From positions 64,475-128,474 of the forward strand of contig CAZLQP010000002.1 of NCBI GenBank assembly GCA_964561855.1: DNA of 64,000 bases, read 5' to 3'. Position 1 is the stretch's first letter; every line of letters starts with the position of its first letter. The position numbers and the translations under genes were made by a program. This stretch comes from an uncultured Burkholderiales bacterium. GTDB lineage: Bacteria > Actinomycetota > Acidimicrobiia > IMCC26256 > JAGPDB01. The notes beneath the pieces were generated by a model. The model worked only from the letters and a program-made list of their open reading frames with translations, was not told the origin of the DNA and searched no databases. Below, one piece after another: positions 25,505 to 60,924 of this stretch.

Positions 25505-26293
25505 CTAATAGGAGACGTTAACCAAGAATAGACCATGTGGCGGCGCAATTTGGGAGCCCAAAACTCGATCGGTACCTTGCAACATCAATTCGACGTATTC
25601 AAGAGAAATTTTTCCTTTCCCCACTTGAACAAGTACTCCAACGATTGAACGTACCATCTGCCAACAGAATGCATTTGCAGAAATTTCAAAGCAAATCAGT
25701 CCTTCTGAGCTGAGGCTAATCAAATGGCTTGGAGGATCAGCGAATCTAGCTGCTAGAACTTCGCGAATATTATGTTTAGAATTTGGGTCTTCCCGGCATA
25801 CGCTTGAAAAATCCTTCTCTCCAACAAAGTATTCTGCGGCTTTCGACATCGCATCTAGGTCAAGTTTATTTGGGATATGCCAAGAAAAATCGCAGCTAAA
25901 CATATCTATATTTTTGGAGTTATTTATGAGGTAATTATAAGTTCGAGATTTTGCAGAAAATCTTGCATGAAAATCTTCTTCAACTTCCACGATTTCAGAA
26001 AAGACTATTTCAGGATTTAATCGCTGATTCAAAACGTGTTTCAATCTTGAAATATCTAGGTCCATCTCTGGAGTGTCAGGAAAATTGAAGGACATAACCT
26101 GATGCAATGCGTGAACGCCTCGGTCAGTCCTTCCAGCAATAGCGAAATTTACATTTTGCTGAGCGACCATTTCAATGACTTCGCGAACTTTACCCATAAC
26201 TGTAGGTACACGATCTAAATCCTCTGAAGTTTGCTCGGCAACACCATGAAAATATTTCCCATGATAAGAAAACGTCGCCTTATAGTTCTTCAT
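25505..26293 (-). CDS. truA: tRNA pseudouridine(38-40) synthase
   Basis: 262 aa. GRTDRGVHA catalytic motif. Confidence 0.92.
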   Translation of the reverse strand: MKNYKATFSYHGKYFHGVAEQTSEDLDRVPTVMGKVREVIEMVAQQNVNFAIAGRTDRGVHALHQVMSFNFPDTPEMDLDISRLKHVLNQRLNPEIVFSEIVEVEEDFHARFSAKSRTYNYLINNSKNIDMFSCDFSWHIPNKLDLDAMSKAAEYFVGEKDFSSVCREDPNSKHNIREVLAARFADPPSHLISLSSEGLICFEISANAFCWQMVRSIVGVLVQVGKGKISLEYVELMLQGTDRVLGSQIAPPHGLFLVNVSY

Positions 26294-26357
26294 AACTAGT
26301 CAATTCTATCCATTTTTTCATCTTTTGTTATCTCGGACGTAGCTCGTTCAGCGTGAT

Positions 26358-26470
26358 GTTTTGGCTCGATAAGTGAATCGTGAGCATTTGCAGCAAGTGA
26401 GGAGACCTTAGGCTCCGAACGTCCGCATAGCGGTGCGAAACAGCGAGCGATCGACTTATCGAGCCAAAAC
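26358..26470 (-). ncRNA. Unclassified multi-hairpin element, copy A (candidate structured RNA in the rplQ-truA spacer)
   Basis: 17-bp perfect outer stem (26358-26374 / 26454-26470) enclosing a 58-nt core (26384-26441). The core is 46/58 identical and co-linear with 59188-59245. The inner hairpins show compensatory changes. Confidence 0.6.
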
Positions 26471-26514
26471 GTCGAAATAAGGAAATTAGTATATGAGGAT
26501 TAAAAACTGAAGGA

Positions 26515-26868
26515 CTATACGAGTTCGATGCGTGCCATTGGAGCTTTATCTCCAGGGCGTGTACCAAGCTTTAAGATACGTACATATCCACCTGGACGAG
26601 AAGAATACTTTGGAGCAATCTCTGTCACAAGCTTATTGACTACAGCTTTGTCGCGAAGGTCAGAAACAAGCTGACGTTGAACATGCTGAGAGTTTTCTTG
26701 ACGAGCTTTTGTGATCATCTTCTCTAGTTCTGGTCGCATGAACTTTGCTTTAGCTAACGTTGTTTCGATTGCACCGTATGTAAAGAATTGGCGTGCCAAG
26801 TTAGACACAATTAATTTTTGGTGCTTTGGATCGCGTCCGAATCGTTGTCCTTTTTTTGGAGTTGCCAT
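26515..26868 (-). CDS. rplQ: 50S ribosomal protein L17
   Basis: 117 aa. Follows rpoA. Confidence 0.96.
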   Translation of the reverse strand: MATPKKGQRFGRDPKHQKLIVSNLARQFFTYGAIETTLAKAKFMRPELEKMITKARQENSQHVQRQLVSDLRDKAVVNKLVTEIAPKYSSRPGGYVRILKLGTRPGDKAPMARIELV

Positions 26869-35045: not shown

Positions 35046-35091
35046 ATATTGAGTAGTAACTATAGTGCTAAAAGCTTCACTGAATCACTTT

Positions 35092-35118
35092 GTCCCATTT
35101 GGAGGGTCAGTCCTCCGG
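35092..35118. repeat. Half copy of the palindromic repeat (gtcccatttggagggtcagtcctccgg) abutting the secY stop codon
   Basis: Matches one arm of the 1416..1487 element except for one base in the A/T tract. Confidence 0.8.
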
Positions 35119-36453
35119 TTAGGATTTAGAGAGGAAACCTTCGTAGTTTCGAAGTGACATTTGTGAATCTATCTGCTTCATAGTTTCAAGCGATACTCCA
35201 ACCATGATCAACATTGATGTTCCACCAAATGGGAACTGTGTAATGTTCCAAAGAATCGTTACGAATATCGGGAAACCTGCGATGAACGCCACCATTATTG
35301 CACCAGGCAGAGTAATACGGTTGAGAATACGAGTTAAGTAACGTTCAGTATCTGCACCTGGTTTGATACCTGGGATATAACCACCTTGTTTGCGAATAAT
35401 ATCTGCTTGTTGAGAAGGATTAAAAGCAATATATGTATAGAAATATGAAAATCCAAGAATCAAAACAACTTGAGCTGCTAGATACCACCATGATTGACCG
35501 TTAATGAAATTATTTTCAACAAATTGACGGAAACTTTCATTGTTTGCCAAACCTGCAATCAACGCTGGAAACAACAAGAGTGACTGAGCAAAAATAACTG
35601 GCACGATACCCGCAGTATTTACTTTCATCGGAATATATGAACTTTGACCACCCATCATCTTTCTTCCGACAACTCGTTTTGCAAACTGCACTGGTATTCG
35701 TCTCTGCCCAGATTCTACGAACACAACACCTGCGATCATTGCAAGGCCGATCATAAGGAATACGACGAATTGTTCACGAGATCCTTCTGTCCATATTGCA
35801 GCAAACTGAAATGGAACGGTACTTGCAACAGAGGCGAAAATCAGAATAGACATTCCATTTCCAATTCCCTTAGAAGTGATCAATTCTCCCATCCACATCA
35901 GCAACGCTGTACCTGCCACAAGCGTAAGAATCATCAATAAATATTTTGGAGTAGTCATGTTGTTGACAAGGAAAGAAGTAACAGCTGTACCATCTGCATC
36001 ATTGAAGCTTTGTCCGTAAAGCTGGCCTTGATTTAGCTGGTAAACCAAAACTGAAGATTGTAGTAGCGCTAAAAGAATTGTCACATACCTTGTAGTCTGT
36101 GTAACTTTCTTTTGACCTTCCGGGCCTTCTTGCTTCCAAGTTTTAACTTTTGGAATTATTTCTCCCAGCAATTGCATGATGATGCTTGCTGTAATGTACG
36201 GCATAATTCCGAGAGCAAAAACTGCAAGGTTTCGAAGTCCACCACCGGCAAGGAGGGCAAAGTAGTTAAGAAGTCCGCCACCTTGATCAGAGAAAATTTC
36301 TGGGTTTCCTAATGTAGCTCGAACTCTTTCATAGTCAACATATGGCAATACAATGAATGATCCAATTCGGTAAAGGACAATGATTGCAAGGGTGAAGAAA
36401 ATCTTTTTTCTCAAGTCCCCTATTCGGAACATCAATGACAGCTTGTCGATCAC
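35119..36453 (-). CDS. secY: Preprotein translocase SecY
   Basis: 444 aa, 10-TM profile, GIMPYITASII motif. Confidence 0.96.
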   Translation of the reverse strand: MIDKLSLMFRIGDLRKKIFFTLAIIVLYRIGSFIVLPYVDYERVRATLGNPEIFSDQGGGLLNYFALLAGGGLRNLAVFALGIMPYITASIIMQLLGEIIPKVKTWKQEGPEGQKKVTQTTRYVTILLALLQSSVLVYQLNQGQLYGQSFNDADGTAVTSFLVNNMTTPKYLLMILTLVAGTALLMWMGELITSKGIGNGMSILIFASVASTVPFQFAAIWTEGSREQFVVFLMIGLAMIAGVVFVESGQRRIPVQFAKRVVGRKMMGGQSSYIPMKVNTAGIVPVIFAQSLLLFPALIAGLANNESFRQFVENNFINGQSWWYLAAQVVLILGFSYFYTYIAFNPSQQADIIRKQGGYIPGIKPGADTERYLTRILNRITLPGAIMVAFIAGFPIFVTILWNITQFPFGGTSMLIMVGVSLETMKQIDSQMSLRNYEGFLSKS

Positions 36454-39303: not shown

Positions 39304-39321
39304 TGTTGTTTTCCTTTTCTT

Positions 39322-39391
39322 CCGGAGGACTGACCCTCCAAAAGGTACTAATCGCTCAGGCGATTCGTACCTTTTGGAGGGTCAGTCCTCC
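39322..39391. repeat. GC-rich palindromic intergenic repeat, full-length copy inside the spc operon (rplF-rplR spacer)
   Basis: ccggaggactgaccctccaaaaggtac ... gtaccttttggagggtcagtcctcc. Same element as 1416..1487 in the opposite orientation, with a paired gggac/gtccc to ggtac/gtacc change. Confidence 0.9.
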
Positions 39392-39395
39392 TCTA

Positions 39396-39935
39396 CTACT
39401 TGGCTGACTTACCAGCTTTACGACGAACGTATTCGCCTTCGTAACGTATACCCTTACCTTTGTATGGTTCTGGCTTTCTGATTTTTCTGATATTGGCAGC
39501 AACTTGACCTACAAGTTGCTTATCGATTCCAGATACTTCAATTCTTGTTTGAGTTGGAGTCACAAAAGTAATTCCTTCTGGAGCTTCAAAAACTACAGGA
39601 TGAGAAAAACCAAGTGCCATATCCAACTTTGATGAACCTTGAGCATTTGCTCTATAACCCACACCTTGAATTTCTAAAGCTTTTGTATAACCCTCAGAAA
39701 CACCTACGATGTTGTTAGCAATCAATTGTCGAATCAGACCATGAAGAGCTTTGTTCTCTCGCTCATCATTAGCTCGAGCAACTTTTACTTCATTGTCTTC
39801 AACAGTTACTGTGATATTTTGTGGAATTTCGTTTTCTAGTTCGCCTTTAGATCCTTTGACCTTAACAACTGATCCAGAAACAGAAACTTCTACACCGCTA
39901 GGAACGGGAATCGGTTTCAATCCTACACGTGACAT
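39396..39935 (-). CDS. rplF: 50S ribosomal protein L6
   Basis: [18 protein letters not shown]-terminus. Confidence 0.97.
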
Positions 39936-42713: not shown

Positions 42714-43652
42714 TTAGTCCTCCCCGCCTCTAAAGTGTGGAGTTTCATGTCCACCCTTAGCTGTACGGCGTTCGATTTCTTCTTCCTCTTCAAGAAGCTT
42801 TTCTAATTCAGGATCAGCTTCCGCGATAAGTGATTTTGATTCTTCAACAATTTCTGTGTCTTTGATTGAATCAACTTCAACTTCTTCAGCAACAACGCTT
42901 GATTTACGTTTTCCGCCACCTGATTTAACAACTCGCGGAGTTTCAGTAGTCGTAGCTCCTGAAGTTTCACCTGTTGCCATTGCTGCTTCACGAGCAATTT
43001 TGTCATCGGCAGAAACTTTGTAAGGAACAATGTCGCCTTTGTATAACCAAACTTTAACTCCGATACGACCAGCAACAGTTTTTGCAGAAACTGAACCATA
43101 ATCGATATCTGCACGAAGAGTATGTAGAGGAACTCGTCCTTCACGGTACCATTCAGTACGAGCCATTTCAGCCCCACCCAGACGACCTGAACATTGGATC
43201 TTAATTCCAAGTGCTCCAGCTTTAAGTGCAGTTTGAACTGCACGCTTCATTGCACGACGGAACGAAACACGTCCAGCAAGTTGATCCCCAACTCCTTGAG
43301 CCAACAACATTGCATCCAATTCTGGATTCTTAATTTCTTGAACATTTAATTGCGCTTTAGGATTACCAGTAATCTGCAAAAGCTTTCTGCGGTGCTTATC
43401 AATTTCTGCACCTTTACGTCCGATGACAATACCTGGACGTGCAGTAAATACATCTACACGTACACGATCTCCTGCGCGCTCGATTTCTATTCGGCTAAGA
43501 GCAGCGTGTTCTAATGCTGAAGTCAAATAAGCTCTGATTTTTGCATCTTGAATAACGTTTTCTGTATATTCAGTTCCAGATGCAAACCAGCGTGACTTCC
43601 AATCGGTTGTGTAACCTAGGCGGAAACCATAAGGATGAATTTTCTGACCCAT
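42714..43652 (-). CDS. rpsC: 30S ribosomal protein S3 with an acidic C-terminal extension of about 90 aa
   Basis: [14 protein letters not shown]-terminus. 312 aa, against the usual 210-240. Confidence 0.96.
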
Positions 43653-44479
43653 TATGCGTCACCTTCTTTTTCTTCAGTTTTCTTCGTAGTCTTCTTTGCC
43701 TTAGGCGCAGCTTCTGTGTCTTCTGATTCAGTCACGGCTTCGCGCCCTTCGGGACTCTCGGAGCCTGAGGTCTCCTCGATCGCTGCAGATGTTCCTTCAT
43801 CAGAATCCACCGCAGCTTCGCCAGCCTTCTTAGCCGTAGTCTTTTTTGAAGTCGATTTCTTAGAAGCAGGCTTTTTCTCAACTTCTGAAGAATCCTCTAC
43901 ATCCGAGTCGGCCTTCTTCTTAGCTGGAGCTTTTTTAGCTTTTGGCTTGTCTTGGATTACTTCTTCATCTTCTGAAATTTCTTCATCAGTTGAAGCTGAA
44001 GCTTCCTCTTTAGCTTTTTGTGCAGCCTTAGATGCTTCTGCACGACGTCTGCGCTGTTCACGAGCATTAGCTGCACCTGAATTAGCTTCTTTCTGAGATT
44101 TCTTTTCAATCTCTTCTTCGCTCATGCGTTCAACAATGATCGTGATGTGACATGTTCGTTTAAAGATTCGAGTACCTCGTCCACGCGCACGTGCCCGGAA
44201 ACGCTTCAGCGTTGGACCTTCATCAACAAATGCTTCCGAAACTTTCAGTTCCTCTGCTGGAATCTGGTTGTTGTGTTCAGCATTAGCTATTGCAGAGTTA
44301 AGAAGTTTTGAGACTTCATGTGCTGGTCCACGATCACAAAGCAAAAGCTCAACTTGCGCTGCTTCTACATCTTTGTTTCTGATTAGATTTACTACTTGGC
44401 GAACCTTGTATGGTGAAGTACCAATATACTTCGCTACAGCTCGCACCTTTGGGCGCTCTTGGAGCTCTGTATCAGCCAT
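43652..44479 (-). CDS. rplV: 50S ribosomal protein L22 with a Lys/Ala/Glu-rich C-terminal extension of about 155 aa
   Basis: The L22 core ends near ITIIVERM. Total length is 275 aa. Confidence 0.95.
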
Positions 44480-47325: not shown

Positions 47326-47362
47326 GACATTGGCTCGTTTCTAGTTGCGGGCTTATCTTTTG

Positions 47363-47390
47363 TACCTTTTGGAGGGTCAGTCCTCCGGTA
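47363..47390. repeat. Half copy of the palindromic repeat (gtaccttttggagggtcagtcctccggtac) in the rplC 5' leader
   Basis: Matches the right arm of the 39322..39391 copy. Flanking gtacc/ggtac can close a small stem. Confidence 0.8.
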
Positions 47391-47604
47391 CTTTTGGCGT
47401 TTATTCACACCAACGCTCCGACAGTGCTGGGCACTCGGAGCGCGAGATCAGTTGTGTTATCTGGTTCCTTGGAACGGAATTGTTCTAAGGCCTTGATAAA
47501 CGTCGGTTAAAACGTGTAGCTAATTTTGTTTCGCAAAATTGGCAAGGTGATATATATTAGGGCAACTTTAGGGCTTTTGTACAATCGGAGCGAAAAGTTC
47601 TCAC

Positions 47605-56949: not shown

Positions 56950-57028
56950 CGGGGGACTGACCCTCCATAATGCTCAAAAGGGACACATTATGTGTCCCTT
57001 TTGAGCATTATGGAGGGTCAGTCCCCCG
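56950..57028. repeat. GC-rich palindromic intergenic repeat, longest copy (79-nt perfect palindrome) just after the fusA stop
   Basis: cgggggactgaccctccataatgctcaaaagggacaca t tgtgtcccttttgagcattatggagggtcagtcccccg. Symmetry checked base by base about 56989. Confidence 0.9.
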
Positions 57029-57035
57029 GGTAGAG

Positions 57036-59120
57036 TTATTCGCCTTTTACTTTGGCAACGATTTCTTCTGCAATTGCACCAGGCACTTGTTCATAATTAT
57101 GGAACTGCATTGAATATGCTGCTCGACCTTGTGTCTTAGAACGAAGGTCATTTACATAACCGAACATGTTCGCTAGAGGAACTTTAGCTTTAATAACTTG
57201 AGAGTTACCTCGTTGTTCCATTCCTTCAACTTGTCCACGACGAGAGTTGATATCTCCAATCACATCACCCATGTAATCTTCTGGAGTTGTAACTTCCACA
57301 CTCATCACTGGCTCAAGCAAAACAGGTTTTGCTTTACGAGCAGCTTCTTTGAAGCCCATAAGTCCTGCAATACGGAAAGCCATTTCAGAAGAGTCAACAT
57401 CGTGGTAAGAACCATAAGTCAAATCTACTTTGACGTCTACCATTGGATAACCAGCCAATACACCAGTCTCCATTGCATCGATAATACCTTTTTCAACTGC
57501 TGGAATGTACTCGCGAGGAATAACACCACCGGTGATTGAGTTAACGAATTCAAATCCGCCGCCAGGACCAGAGGGCTCAACTGTAATAACAACATCAGCA
57601 TATTGTCCAGAACCACCAGATTGTTTAACGTGCTTGTATTGAACCTTCTCAACTTTTTGCGAAATAGTTTCACGATAAGCAACTTGAGGTTTACCAACGT
57701 TTGCATCAACATTGAATTCACGCTTCATTCGATCAACCAAAACTTCAAGGTGAAGCTCGCCCATACCGCGAATGATTGTCTGTCCTGTTTCTTCGTCAGT
57801 GTTGACCTTAAATGTTGGGTCTTCTTCCGAAAGCGAAGCTAGAGCTTTTGCAAGCTTGTCTTGATCGTTCTTTGTTTTAGGTTCGATTGCAACACTGATC
57901 ACAGGTTCTGGAAATTCCATATTTTCCAAGATGATCGGATTTGATTTGTCGCAAAGAGTATCACCAGTTGTTGTTTGCTTGAATCCAAGTCCAGCAACAA
58001 TGTCACCTGCGTATGCAACTTCAATATCTTCACGATCATTTGCATGCATACGAAGAAGTCGACCAATTCGTTCCTTCTTATCACGAGTCGAATTGTAAAG
58101 ATCTTGACCCTTTTCAATCTTTCCAGAATAAATACGGAAGTAAGTAAGTTTTCCATAAGGATCCGCTACAACCTTAAATGCAAGTGCAGAAAATGGTTCG
58201 TTGTCGTCTGCATGGCGCTCATCTGGAGTTTCGCCGTCCATTTTTGTTCCGTTAATTGAAGCAATATCTAACGGTGATGGAAGGTAATCTACAACAGCAT
58301 TAAGCATTGGCTGAACACCTTTGTTCTTAAATGCTGAACCACAAAGCACAGGAACAAATTCACCAGCGATTGTTCCCTTTCGAATTGCTCTCTTTAGTTC
58401 TGCTTCGGTGATCTCTTCATCGTTGAGGTATTTCTCCATGATCTCATCATCAGTAGCAGTTACAGAATCCAAAAGCAAGTGCCGGTATTCATCAGCTTGC
58501 GCTTTTAGTTCTGGACGAATCTCGCAAACTTCAAACTCTTGACCTTCACTTGGATCGTCTAGCGCCCATTTAACTTCTTTCATCTGAACAAGATCAACGA
58601 TTCCTTCAAAAATATCTTCTGATCCAATTGGTAAATGAAGTACTGCAGTAGTTGCACCAAGTCGTTCTTGAATCATTCCTAAACACATGAAGAAGTCTGC
58701 ACCCGTTCGGTCCATCTTGTTCACGAAACACATTCTTGGAACACCATATTTATCAGCTTGACGCCAAACAGTTTCTGATTGAGGTTCTACACCTGCAACA
58801 CCATCGAAAACTGCAACTGCACCATCGAGCACACGAAGTGAACGCTCAACTTCAACAGTGAAGTCAACGTGACCCGGTGTGTCAATAATTTGGATCATGT
58901 GGTCGTTCCACATACATGTTGTAGCAGCAGATGTAATGGTAATACCACGCTCTTGCTCTTGAGCCATGTGGTCCATCACTGCTCCACCTTCATGTACTTC
59001 ACCGATTTTGTATGTACGTCCGGTGTAATACAAGATACGTTCAGTAGTTGTTGTTTTACCGGCGTCGATGTGAGCCATGATTCCGATGTTGCGAACTTTT
59101 TCTAATGGGTGACGTGCCAT
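57036..59120 (-). CDS. fusA: Elongation factor G
   Basis: 694 aa. [20 protein letters not shown]. Confidence 0.98.
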
Positions 59121-59154: not shown

Positions 59155-59282
59155 GTTTGGTGGTGGATCCAGCGAGTATCTGAGATCGCATTTGCAGCGA
59201 GAGAAGAGACCTTAGGCTCTTCTCGTCAGCGAAGCTGCGCGAAACGCGATCGAAGATAGTCGCTGGGTTCACCACCGAAAAC
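59155..59282 (-). ncRNA. Unclassified multi-hairpin element, copy B (candidate structured RNA in the rpsG-fusA spacer)
   Basis: Imperfect outer stem of about 23 bp (59159-59181 / 59254-59276, extendable). gatcgc/gcgatc helix. 58-nt core at 59188-59245, homologous to 26384-26441. Confidence 0.6.
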
Positions 59283-59288
59283 CGAGTG

Positions 59289-59774
59289 TTACCATCTAAA
59301 GTGAGCAAATGCTTTGTTAGCTTCTGCCATCTTTTGAAGGTCATCACGTTTTTTGATTGATGTACCAACACCATTTGCTGCATCGATAATTTCTTGAGCA
59401 AGTCGTTGCGCCATAGTTTTTTCACGACGTTTACGAGAGTGCTCTACAATCCATCGAATAGCTAAAGTTGTTGCACGACGAGGCTTTACTTCAACTGGTA
59501 CTTGGTATGTTGCACCACCGACACGACGAGAACGAACTTCCAAAGCTGGACGAACATTTTCGATTGCTTTTTTCAGCGTTGGAATTGGATCTCCTGCTTG
59601 CGCATCTTCTGTTTTCTTTTCCTTGACAATTTCAAGTGCGTCATAAACAATTTTTGCTGCAACAGATTTTTTTCCGTGCAAAAGAATTTTGTTAATTAAT
59701 TGTTGAACTACAACTGAATGATAAATCGGATCAGGTAATAGTTCTCTTCTGGGAGCTGGACCTTTACGTGGCAT
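59289..59774 (-). CDS. rpsG: 30S ribosomal protein S7
   Basis: [18 protein letters not shown] ... AFAHFRW. Confidence 0.98.
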
Positions 59775-60417: not shown

Positions 60418-60924
60418 CTATGGATTCGTCGATACTGTGTCGTCATCGTCATCGTCATCGTCATCGGAGTCGTCGTCATCAGAATCGTCATCAGAGTCAT
60501 CGTCATCGTCATCGGAGTCATCGTCGTCATAGTCAGGAGATGTAGAGACTGAACTACCTTCAGATCTAGAAGATGAATCATCGTCAGAAGAACTACTTCG
60601 GCGTGATGATTCTCGACGATCGTCGTCGTCATCGGAGTCATCATCAGATATTGTTGAGACAGTTGTATTTACCGTTGTCGAAGTTGAGTTATCATCTTGT
60701 TCGACCCGGACACGATCACGATCATCCGCTGTATCAATGTTGCTCGATGTATTTGTCACACCAAATGCAGCACCACCAATCGCAATTACTAAAAGACTCG
60801 CAAGAGCTGTTGCAACAATTCTCTGCCTTCTCACTCGTTGGCCAATAACAGCCTTTGCTCTTTGAGAGACATCATCAGGAACTATGATTTCCTGATCATC
60901 ATCTAAATCTTTAAAATTTGTCAT
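60418..60924 (-). CDS. Single-pass membrane protein co-translated with the ECF sigma (anti-sigma-like position), with an extreme Asp/Ser tail
   Basis: 168 aa. ATGA overlap with the sigma gene. TM segment IVATALASLLVIAIGGAAFGV. The C-terminal 90 aa are dominated by D and S. Confidence 0.65.
   Translation of the reverse strand: MTNFKDLDDDQEIIVPDDVSQRAKAVIGQRVRRQRIVATALASLLVIAIGGAAFGVTNTSSNIDTADDRDRVRVEQDDNSTSTTVNTTVSTISDDDSDDDDDRRESSRRSSSSDDDSSSRSEGSSVSTSPDYDDDDSDDDDDDSDDDSDDDDSDDDDDDDDDTVSTNP

Follow-up and report, generated by a model that had tools for sequence, protein, structure and literature searches.

The stretch of DNA analysed here (64,000 nt, called the window below) carries three copies, A, B and C, of a long hairpin, and with modest confidence we regard them as members of a hitherto undescribed family of structured, non-autonomous insertion elements in Acidimicrobiia/Actinomycetota, comparable to the Rickettsia palindromic elements (RPEs). 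Orthologous sites are filled in some genomes and empty in others, and the fold of the element is under selection on one strand, called here the pattern strand. The insertion reading rests on filled and empty orthologous sites, on independent occurrence at unrelated loci, with two oppositely oriented events in one protein tail, on in-frame copies in disordered segments, on the absence of a promoter and on wear of the conserved blocks that tracks wear of the arms. Element A, located between rplQ and truA, resembles a selfish insert more than it does a regulatory RNA of ribosomal proteins.

Three copies in the window and their common fold

The host genome of the window is an Acidimicrobiia MAG, in which the minus strand carries every gene from position 1 to about 61.5 kb of the window. 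The copies and their neighbouring genes are as follows.

26355..26473, plus strand: element A, whole hairpin, 119 nt (arm alignment, folds, model match 86.9 / 73.2 bits)
26355..26380, plus strand: 5' arm of A, pairing with 26448-26473, its distal part peculiar to A
26448..26473, plus strand: 3' arm of A
26384..26441, plus strand: core of A, the conserved three-way junction
26515..26868, minus strand: rplQ (L17), upstream of A in the direction of transcription
25505..26293, minus strand: truA, downstream of A
27815-26880, minus strand: rpoA, in the same minus-strand region as rplQ and truA
59156..59279, plus strand: element B, whole hairpin, 124 nt (folds, model match 87.5 / 76.3 bits)
59188..59245, plus strand: core of B, with P2 entirely Watson-Crick
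59289-59774, minus strand: rpsG, flanking B
57036-59120, minus strand: fusA, flanking B
43704..43822, minus strand: element C, about 119 nt, inside the rplV/L22 ORF (80.2 bits with the R2 model)
43737..43792, minus strand: core of C, with the derived changes CAUCUG, UCA loop and CGAAGC
43652-44479, minus strand: rplV/L22 ORF, whose low-complexity, long Lys/Ala/Glu-rich C-terminal tail houses C

A sequence-only reading of this DNA had proposed a 113-nt structured RNA between rplQ and truA. Its perfect 17-bp outer stem is present (26358-26374 / 26454-26470) and its spacing is right, with the rplQ stop 44 nt away and the truA start (26293) 64 nt away, but the hairpin is slightly longer than the limits given and spans 26355-26473. 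The two hairpins P2 (26397-26420) and P3 (26423-26433) were correctly placed. The second copy was also correctly recognised, aligning without gaps between 26384-26441 and 59188-59245 at 46/58 identities (79%), and the differences between A and B in the stems are indeed paired (U-A to A-U and G-C to A-U in P2, C-G to A-U in P3). What had been drawn as two free single strands beside the hairpins is instead a junction closed by a covarying 3-bp helix (G-N-N / N-N-C). The core of A runs from GCAUUUGCA through the closing strand G-C-A and a single A to P2, followed by GU, P3, the closing strand U-G-C and GAAAC; P2 of A comprises 8 bp with a tandem G.A/A.G, a bulged A and a CC-UUA-GG cap. The fold z-scores of A and B against shuffled sequence are -6.1 to -9.9.

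A first covariance model was built from A and B, as the sequence-only reading had suggested; it revealed C as a third copy in the window, and members were found in other Actinomycetota MAGs. The improved model, run unfiltered over the 64 kb, finds exactly the three copies A, B and C at 73-80 bits, with 14.6 bits for the best other site. Family-wide, the model matches 12 non-identical sites at 45-88 bits and gives at most 15 bits elsewhere. Comparison with Rfam, likewise suggested, matched no family, including the L17 downstream element (L17DE, RF01708). Rfam 15 at gathering score has no match anywhere in the window, so that known ribosomal leaders are not recognisable in this lineage across the str, S10, spc and alpha operons, and the window (1-64000) has no tRNA gene. 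At E<=10, the surroundings of A and B matched only the unrelated SNORD69, ZNFX1-AS1_2 and Plastid-ycf3, all with E>=0.75. None of the 12-mers from the conserved blocks is present in the literature searched. Self-cleaving ribozymes (hammerhead, twister, pistol, hatchet, HDV-like) gave no Rfam match even at E<=10, and by inspection a hammerhead core does not match the junction strands (A; GU; none). Similarly, K-turn, loop E and IS200/IS605-type ends do not fit, as judged by inspection of the sequence.

The core, common to all members, is a three-way junction of 56-62 nt, and its structure was judged on a model-based alignment of 12 non-identical members. In the revised structure, the 5' part consists of R-C-A-U, the bases U5 and U6, G-C-A, the closing strand G10-N-N and A13. 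P2 has 8 bp with a bulged A22, the CC-UUA-GG cap and its return strand, followed by G-U; P3 has 3-6 bp with a GNA or GNRA loop; and the 3' part consists of the closing strand N-N-C67, G-A, the bases A70 and A71, and C. In total, 91.3% of the cells are paired and 12 pairs are changed on both sides, which none of 500 shuffles matched, while slid structure controls are 27-47% paired. RNAalifold independently finds P2, P3 and the 3-bp closing helix. Another closing helix, UUUG/CGAA with a U.G pair, showed no covariation and was replaced by the GNN/NNC helix together with the pairs U5-A71 and U6-A70. Positions 3-4 of P2 form a tandem G.A/A.G in seven of the 12 members and are Watson-Crick in the other five.

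Elements are 99-168 nt long with 19-43 arm pairs. The 6-8 bp adjoining the core are conserved within subfamilies and covary, as in GATCGC/GCGATC (B), GATTGC/GCAATC (L016) and GAAGAAGC/GCTTC (L013, L025), whereas the distal 10-40 bp of the stem differ in each copy. The earlier remark that the outer stems differ and still pair is borne out: arms of independent copies resemble each other only at background level (scores 4-11; shuffled mean 6.3, maximum 12; anchored identity 0.43-0.44 versus 0.40 shuffled), and each arm pairs with its own partner (12-21). Intact blocks go together with near-perfect arms in A, B, L012, L013, L016 and L025, and worn blocks with worn arms in the C lineage and L017. 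In the oldest lineage, junction and loop bases have changed and the stems persist.

The strand that carries the fold

The pattern strand, defined by its structural signature, is the window plus strand for A and B and the window minus strand for C. Core G.U cells number 10 on this strand and 1 on the opposite one, and transition mismatches in the arms are G.U on the pattern strand in 13 cases versus 3 (binomial p=0.02). The tandem G.A of P2 would read U.C on the opposite strand, and the pattern strand of L016 has a GUGA tetraloop. In most copies, the pattern strand folds better by 5-26 kcal/mol; L025, for example, reaches -75.1 kcal/mol on the pattern strand and -48.7 kcal/mol on the mRNA strand. 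RNAalifold gave -11.4 kcal/mol versus -4.5 kcal/mol for the opposite strand, an unequal comparison, since the opposite-strand alignment came from MAFFT instead of being fitted to the model.

At seven of nine DNA-verified independent sites, this strand runs antisense to the genes that host or flank the element. The structured strand of A is antisense to both rplQ and truA and that of B to both rpsG and fusA, and the pattern strand of C is the coding strand of rplV. The arm asymmetry may alternatively reflect selection that weakens the hairpin in the host mRNA; arm G.U cells number 12 versus 1 in anti-oriented copies and 1 versus 2 in co-oriented copies (Fisher p=0.07, not significant). The core signatures are family-wide in both orientations and thus reflect the selected single-strand form of the element itself.

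Such signatures are also what would be expected of small RNA genes, in which the pattern strand would be transcribed, usually antisense, the stem would be processed in the manner of RNase III, and an RNA of about 60 nt would act in trans or as a cis-antisense RNA. This reading, which we consider unlikely, is favoured by the covariation and the invariant junction and loop nucleotides, by the confinement of G.U, G.A and GNRA to one strand, by the compensatory changes in orthologous L22 copies (below) and by the conserved apex on a variable base, which may recall mature RNAs with processing stems. However, the pattern strand showed no sigma-70-like promoter at A or B in a scan with the sigma-70 consensus only, and the sole promoter-like site is a weak one on the minus strand (26331-26303), between A and truA. 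Every gene between 1 and 61.5 kb is encoded on the other strand, copies lie inside ORFs in both orientations, the nearest relatives have no element, and the oldest lineage has changed the supposedly essential junction and loop bases and kept the stems.

Orthologous spacers, unrelated loci and coding sequence

The spacer after rplQ was compared among relatives. It has no element in L001-L003 (L17 82% identical), L004-L006 (79%) or L007 (79%), and it has one in L008-L010 (74%), where the conserved blocks are kept and the stems are different. Thus, of the conservation at orthologous rplQ spacers that the sequence-only reading had looked for, there is none in the three closest relatives sampled and some in one more distant lineage. 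The model scan agrees, with no copy in L001-L007 and one copy in 20.9 kb of L021. For element B, L018, the only contig found by the window S12, is 100% identical across the spacer and is therefore uninformative on presence or absence, and the closest S7 relatives (P0122; L019, L020) have no element after rpsG in a gene order that differs there.

Two further observations concern these spacers. The L17 protein is identical on L008, L009 and L010; in L009 (3387-3500), the core and one arm are 100% identical to L008/L010 and are followed by total divergence, which begins inside the other arm and runs through the start of truA, and this points to a recombination breakpoint within the element with loss of the outer stem. 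In the element-free L001 (3375-3395), the sense strand reads ACATTTGCAAC after rplQ, beside a terminator; it is a 9/10 match to the family block CATTTGCAG in the opposite orientation and may be due to chance or be a remnant of the element.

L001 and L004 have canonical intrinsic terminators after rplQ. Element A sits where these relatives have the terminator and is therefore probably a 3'-end hairpin there. It is not a simple terminator, just as had been said: a U-tract terminator is absent at A, and no intrinsic terminator-like site was found at A or B on either strand. These facts raise the possibility of a domesticated cis element of the host transcripts, in which the hairpin would offer a processing site, stabilise 3' ends, terminate without a U-tract or insulate within highly expressed operons, possibly with a preference for blocking antisense transcription because the hairpin of the pattern strand is stronger. 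The position of A, where relatives have an intrinsic terminator and the window has none, speaks for it, as do the highly expressed loci (ribosomal protein operons, tRNA clusters, nuo), the arm mismatches that weaken the host-transcript hairpin in anti-oriented copies (12 vs 1, as above) and the precedent of RNase III processing of Correia elements. We nevertheless consider it unlikely, as a plain hairpin would suffice for such roles and the conserved, covarying three-way junction would be left without an explanation; moreover, a processing role is hard to imagine for copies in coding tails and linkers, the elements are patchily distributed, and the test of wobble against orientation is not significant.

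Members at other loci were sought with a pattern of three shared blocks, scanned over public genome, metagenome and viral collections. In the genome collection (185,579 species genomes) it matched five times, twice for real members (L012, L013) and three times by chance (L011, L014, L015); both matches in the metagenome collection are real; and the viral collection, scanned twice, has no match. The pattern is strict, so these counts are a lower bound and the apparent invariance of the blocks is biased upward, namely through the four members that were found by the exact pattern. These members lie at two tRNA loci, at nuoA/B and in one E2 gene. L012 has the same orientation as gyrA, a small membrane protein and tRNA-Ile, which precede it; L016, with a perfect stem of about 20 bp, is flanked by tRNA-Thr and tRNA-Met; L017 is at nuoA/nuoB; and L013 is inside the Ala/Pro linker of an E2 acyltransferase. 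In the NuoA of L017, the family match ends at residue 127 of 189, so that the element forms a C-terminal extension. The contig of L013 (CAZFAO010000006.1) is labelled as uncultured Burkholderiales, and its E2 matches best to the actinobacterial SucB model TIGR02927 (404 bits, versus 295-320 for other SucB models); the contig is probably mis-binned.

These loci bear on the view, which follows a lead of the sequence-only reading, that the element is an autoregulatory or 3'-UTR element of ribosomal protein operons, acting at rplQ in the manner of L17DE and at the str operon. It would explain why A and B are in ribosomal protein operons and why A, like L17DE, is downstream of rplQ. We consider it very improbable, because no match to RF01708 or any ribosomal leader was found, the structural signatures are on the antisense strand, unlike L17DE, the orthologous spacers of the nearest relatives are free of the element, and members also occur at gyrA/tRNA-Ile, nuoA/B and E2 loci. 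The proposal of a functional RNA therefore stands as to a genuine fold with conserved loops and junctions and covarying helices, but not as to any tie to rplQ-truA or the ribosomal protein operons.

The L22 gene provides both filled and empty sites. In an alignment of L22 proteins, the segment encoded by C occurs in four (P0241-P0244) and the insert is absent from ten close homologs within P0245-P0256. P0250 carries the opposite-strand translation elsewhere in its tail, which represents an independent insert in reversed orientation. At the DNA level, L021/L022, L023 and L024 are confirmed to carry orthologous copies; the derived changes in the core of C are shared with the copies in L021, L023 and L024, and these orthologous copies keep P2 and P3 paired via double changes (G-C to U-A in L021, C-G to G-C in L024). 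The double changes hint at a function in place, unless they arose from template-switch correction or gene conversion. In addition, L025 bears an independent, well-preserved and oppositely oriented copy in its L22 tail (66.8 bits). The filled L025 and the empty L026 share about 88% identity, which ends abruptly 5 nt before the palindrome; this left junction is sharp, and the right side is too diverged to set boundaries.

The tails of these proteins were noteworthy in other respects. L22 of the window (275 aa; rplV, 43652-44479) and S3 (312 aa; rpsC, 42714-43652) both have a long low-complexity acidic/lysine-rich C-terminal tail, long L22 tails are ancestral in the clade (homologs of 210-290 aa), and a 168-aa protein at 60418-60924 ends in long Asp and Ser runs. 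In L025, the L22 tail contains a further insert, about 66 nt long (~860-925; columns 753-819 of alignment A10), which is absent from L026 (...ESQGAKDEQPRESSGTASDSTTN...). It contains GATGAGC...ATCATCT...CTGCAAGTG, recalling P2 and the CTGCAAATG block; the model does not detect it, and it may be a degenerate second copy.

A profile of the opposite-strand peptide, searched against 1.84 billion representatives, found two more insert-bearing proteins, P0364 and the diverged P0363. Altogether, independent insertions occurred at at least nine DNA-verified sites and at two more known only as encoded peptides. They are in operon spacers, in tRNA spacers and in frame in disordered tails or linkers, in both orientations; the in-frame hosts are L22 (two independent events), NuoA, the E2 acyltransferase and the unnamed P0363 and P0364. 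In its 56-nt form, the core is free of stops in one frame per strand, the pattern strand reading AFAA.EETLGSE.PEGRET, and every in-frame coding copy seen uses these two open frames; in the 58-nt form of A and B, the frame shifts within P3. The insertion reading does not account for the apparent leaning towards translation-related, highly expressed loci, which is partly an ascertainment effect, or for the antisense orientation at most sites.

Proposed mode of insertion and comparison with known systems

The boundaries and neighbourhoods of the copies were inspected for traces of mobilisation. At the hairpin boundaries of nine copies there is no consistent direct repeat but only scattered 4-6-mers; L025 is flanked by AAGTCC on both sides, and the empty L026 allele does not confirm it as a target. 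No mobilising enzyme was found near any copy, and the neighbourhood of L016 has housekeeping genes only, with no RT, transposase or HUH enzyme. The copy number is low, with three copies in the 64-kb window and four real exact-pattern sites in the genome and metagenome collections. The copies share neither terminal inverted repeats nor a consistent target-site duplication (TSD), and no two of them are near-identical; recent transposition is thus not directly seen.

These results also bear on a classical MITE or a REP-type repeat from an IS element, an outcome that the sequence-only reading had named. The element does resemble such repeats in being small, non-coding and palindromic, in forming a long stem-loop, and in being mostly intergenic and sometimes fused to ORFs. 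On the other hand, MITEs are defined by family-wide terminal inverted repeats, TSDs and many similar copies. Here the distal arms of independent copies are no more alike than shuffled sequence, no TSD is consistent among the copies, and the window has only three copies, with 79% core identity and no near-identical ones. With no transposase nearby, no match of element A to plasmids and phages by blastn and no viral copy found, we consider this origin quite improbable.

A second, unrelated repeat family was noticed in the window, namely a 16-nt hairpin motif, GGAGGACTGACCCTCC, found at eight sites versus 0.19 expected. The sites are all intergenic, several of them within ribosomal protein operons, and have no Rfam match; three are inverted pairs that form palindromes of about 70 nt with conserved arms, in a REP/MITE-like manner. 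A similar GGGGGTCTGATCCCCCAAAAC is present in L001 immediately after rplQ. In the window, the repeat sites are as follows.

1415-1485: GGAGGACTGACCCTCC repeat site
35089-35122: GGAGGACTGACCCTCC repeat site
39321-39397: GGAGGACTGACCCTCC repeat site
47359-47392: GGAGGACTGACCCTCC repeat site
56950-57029: GGAGGACTGACCCTCC repeat site

As an insertion element, the family may spread with its pattern strand as a single-stranded intermediate, either RNA or ssDNA, whose fold would be recognised by a trans-acting enzyme. If the insertion reading is right, the covarying three-way junction and the copy-specific arms point to such mobilisation through recognition of a folded single strand. The distal arms may be made or perfected on the spot; one way would be intrastrand template switching at the palindrome, a known mutational route at quasi-palindromes. 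Presumably only insertions in tolerant places survive. The host transcript would show A and B as the complementary, weaker hairpin. As a 3'-end hairpin, A could act as a stabiliser, a U-less terminator or an RNase III site, as Correia-type repeats do.

A bolder possibility, to which we give some but limited weight, is that the three-way junction is the working part of a new class of structure-dependent mobile element, either a small RNA, perhaps catalytic, that is reverse-copied into DNA, or an ssDNA recombinase substrate, which favours highly transcribed translation-related loci and builds its arms from local sequence at each insertion, or else that it is a domesticated antisense RNA kept by selection even in the coding sequence of ribosomal proteins.

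Among known systems, the family that we favour as insertion elements is closest by description to the RPEs, which published accounts describe as palindromic, about 100-150 bp long and often located in frame inside unrelated ORFs (Ogata et al. 2000, as summarised in PMC3184786 and PMC10969869). Both are similar in size, have no coding capacity of their own and no known mobilising enzyme, can form a long hairpin, and occur in intergenic DNA as well as, often in frame, in housekeeping ORFs of unrelated function, adding a peptide that the protein tolerates. Unlike RPEs, the present family is in Actinomycetota, not in Rickettsia, and has a low copy number; only the apical three-way junction and the adjoining stem are conserved, with covarying helices and copy-specific arms, and one strand bears a strong structural signature. 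A looser resemblance is to MITEs processed in transcripts: the Correia elements (CREE) of Neisseria and the ERIC elements of Yersinia likewise form long hairpins when co-transcribed in operons, and their processing by RNase III (Correia) or RNase E (ERIC) would be plausible for the host mRNA of this element.

L17DE occurs in Lactobacillales and Listeria, where its G-U pairs and GNRA loops speak for the rplQ sense strand (PMC2864571). It resembles element A in being structured, just downstream of rplQ and not a terminator, and its strand was argued from G-U pairs and GNRA loops as was done here; it differs in that no covariance-model match exists, the signatures of our element are antisense, and our element is not specific to rplQ.

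The attC sites of integrons are mobilised as a folded single strand, of which one strand is active and the structure, not the sequence, is conserved. However, attC conserves the base of the hairpin (R/L boxes) and varies at the apex, the reverse of this element, and neither an integrase nor a cassette array accompanies the copies here. The intervening sequences of 23S rRNA are patchy long stem-loops that are excised by RNase III and tolerated in essential transcripts. The present elements are similar to them as patchy long stem-loops in highly expressed, essential transcripts, though to our knowledge intervening sequences of this kind are known in rRNA only.

Finally, if the insertion reading is true, Acidimicrobiia, which are abundant and mostly uncultured Actinomycetota of freshwater and marine environments, hold a counterpart of the Rickettsia palindromic elements. 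RNA-motif screens would call the element a cis-regulator of ribosomal proteins from the placement of A and B, and gene callers will translate it inside ORFs. A tiny insert would then have colonised essential, highly expressed genes of these bacteria, adding peptides to L22, NuoA and the E2 acyltransferase.
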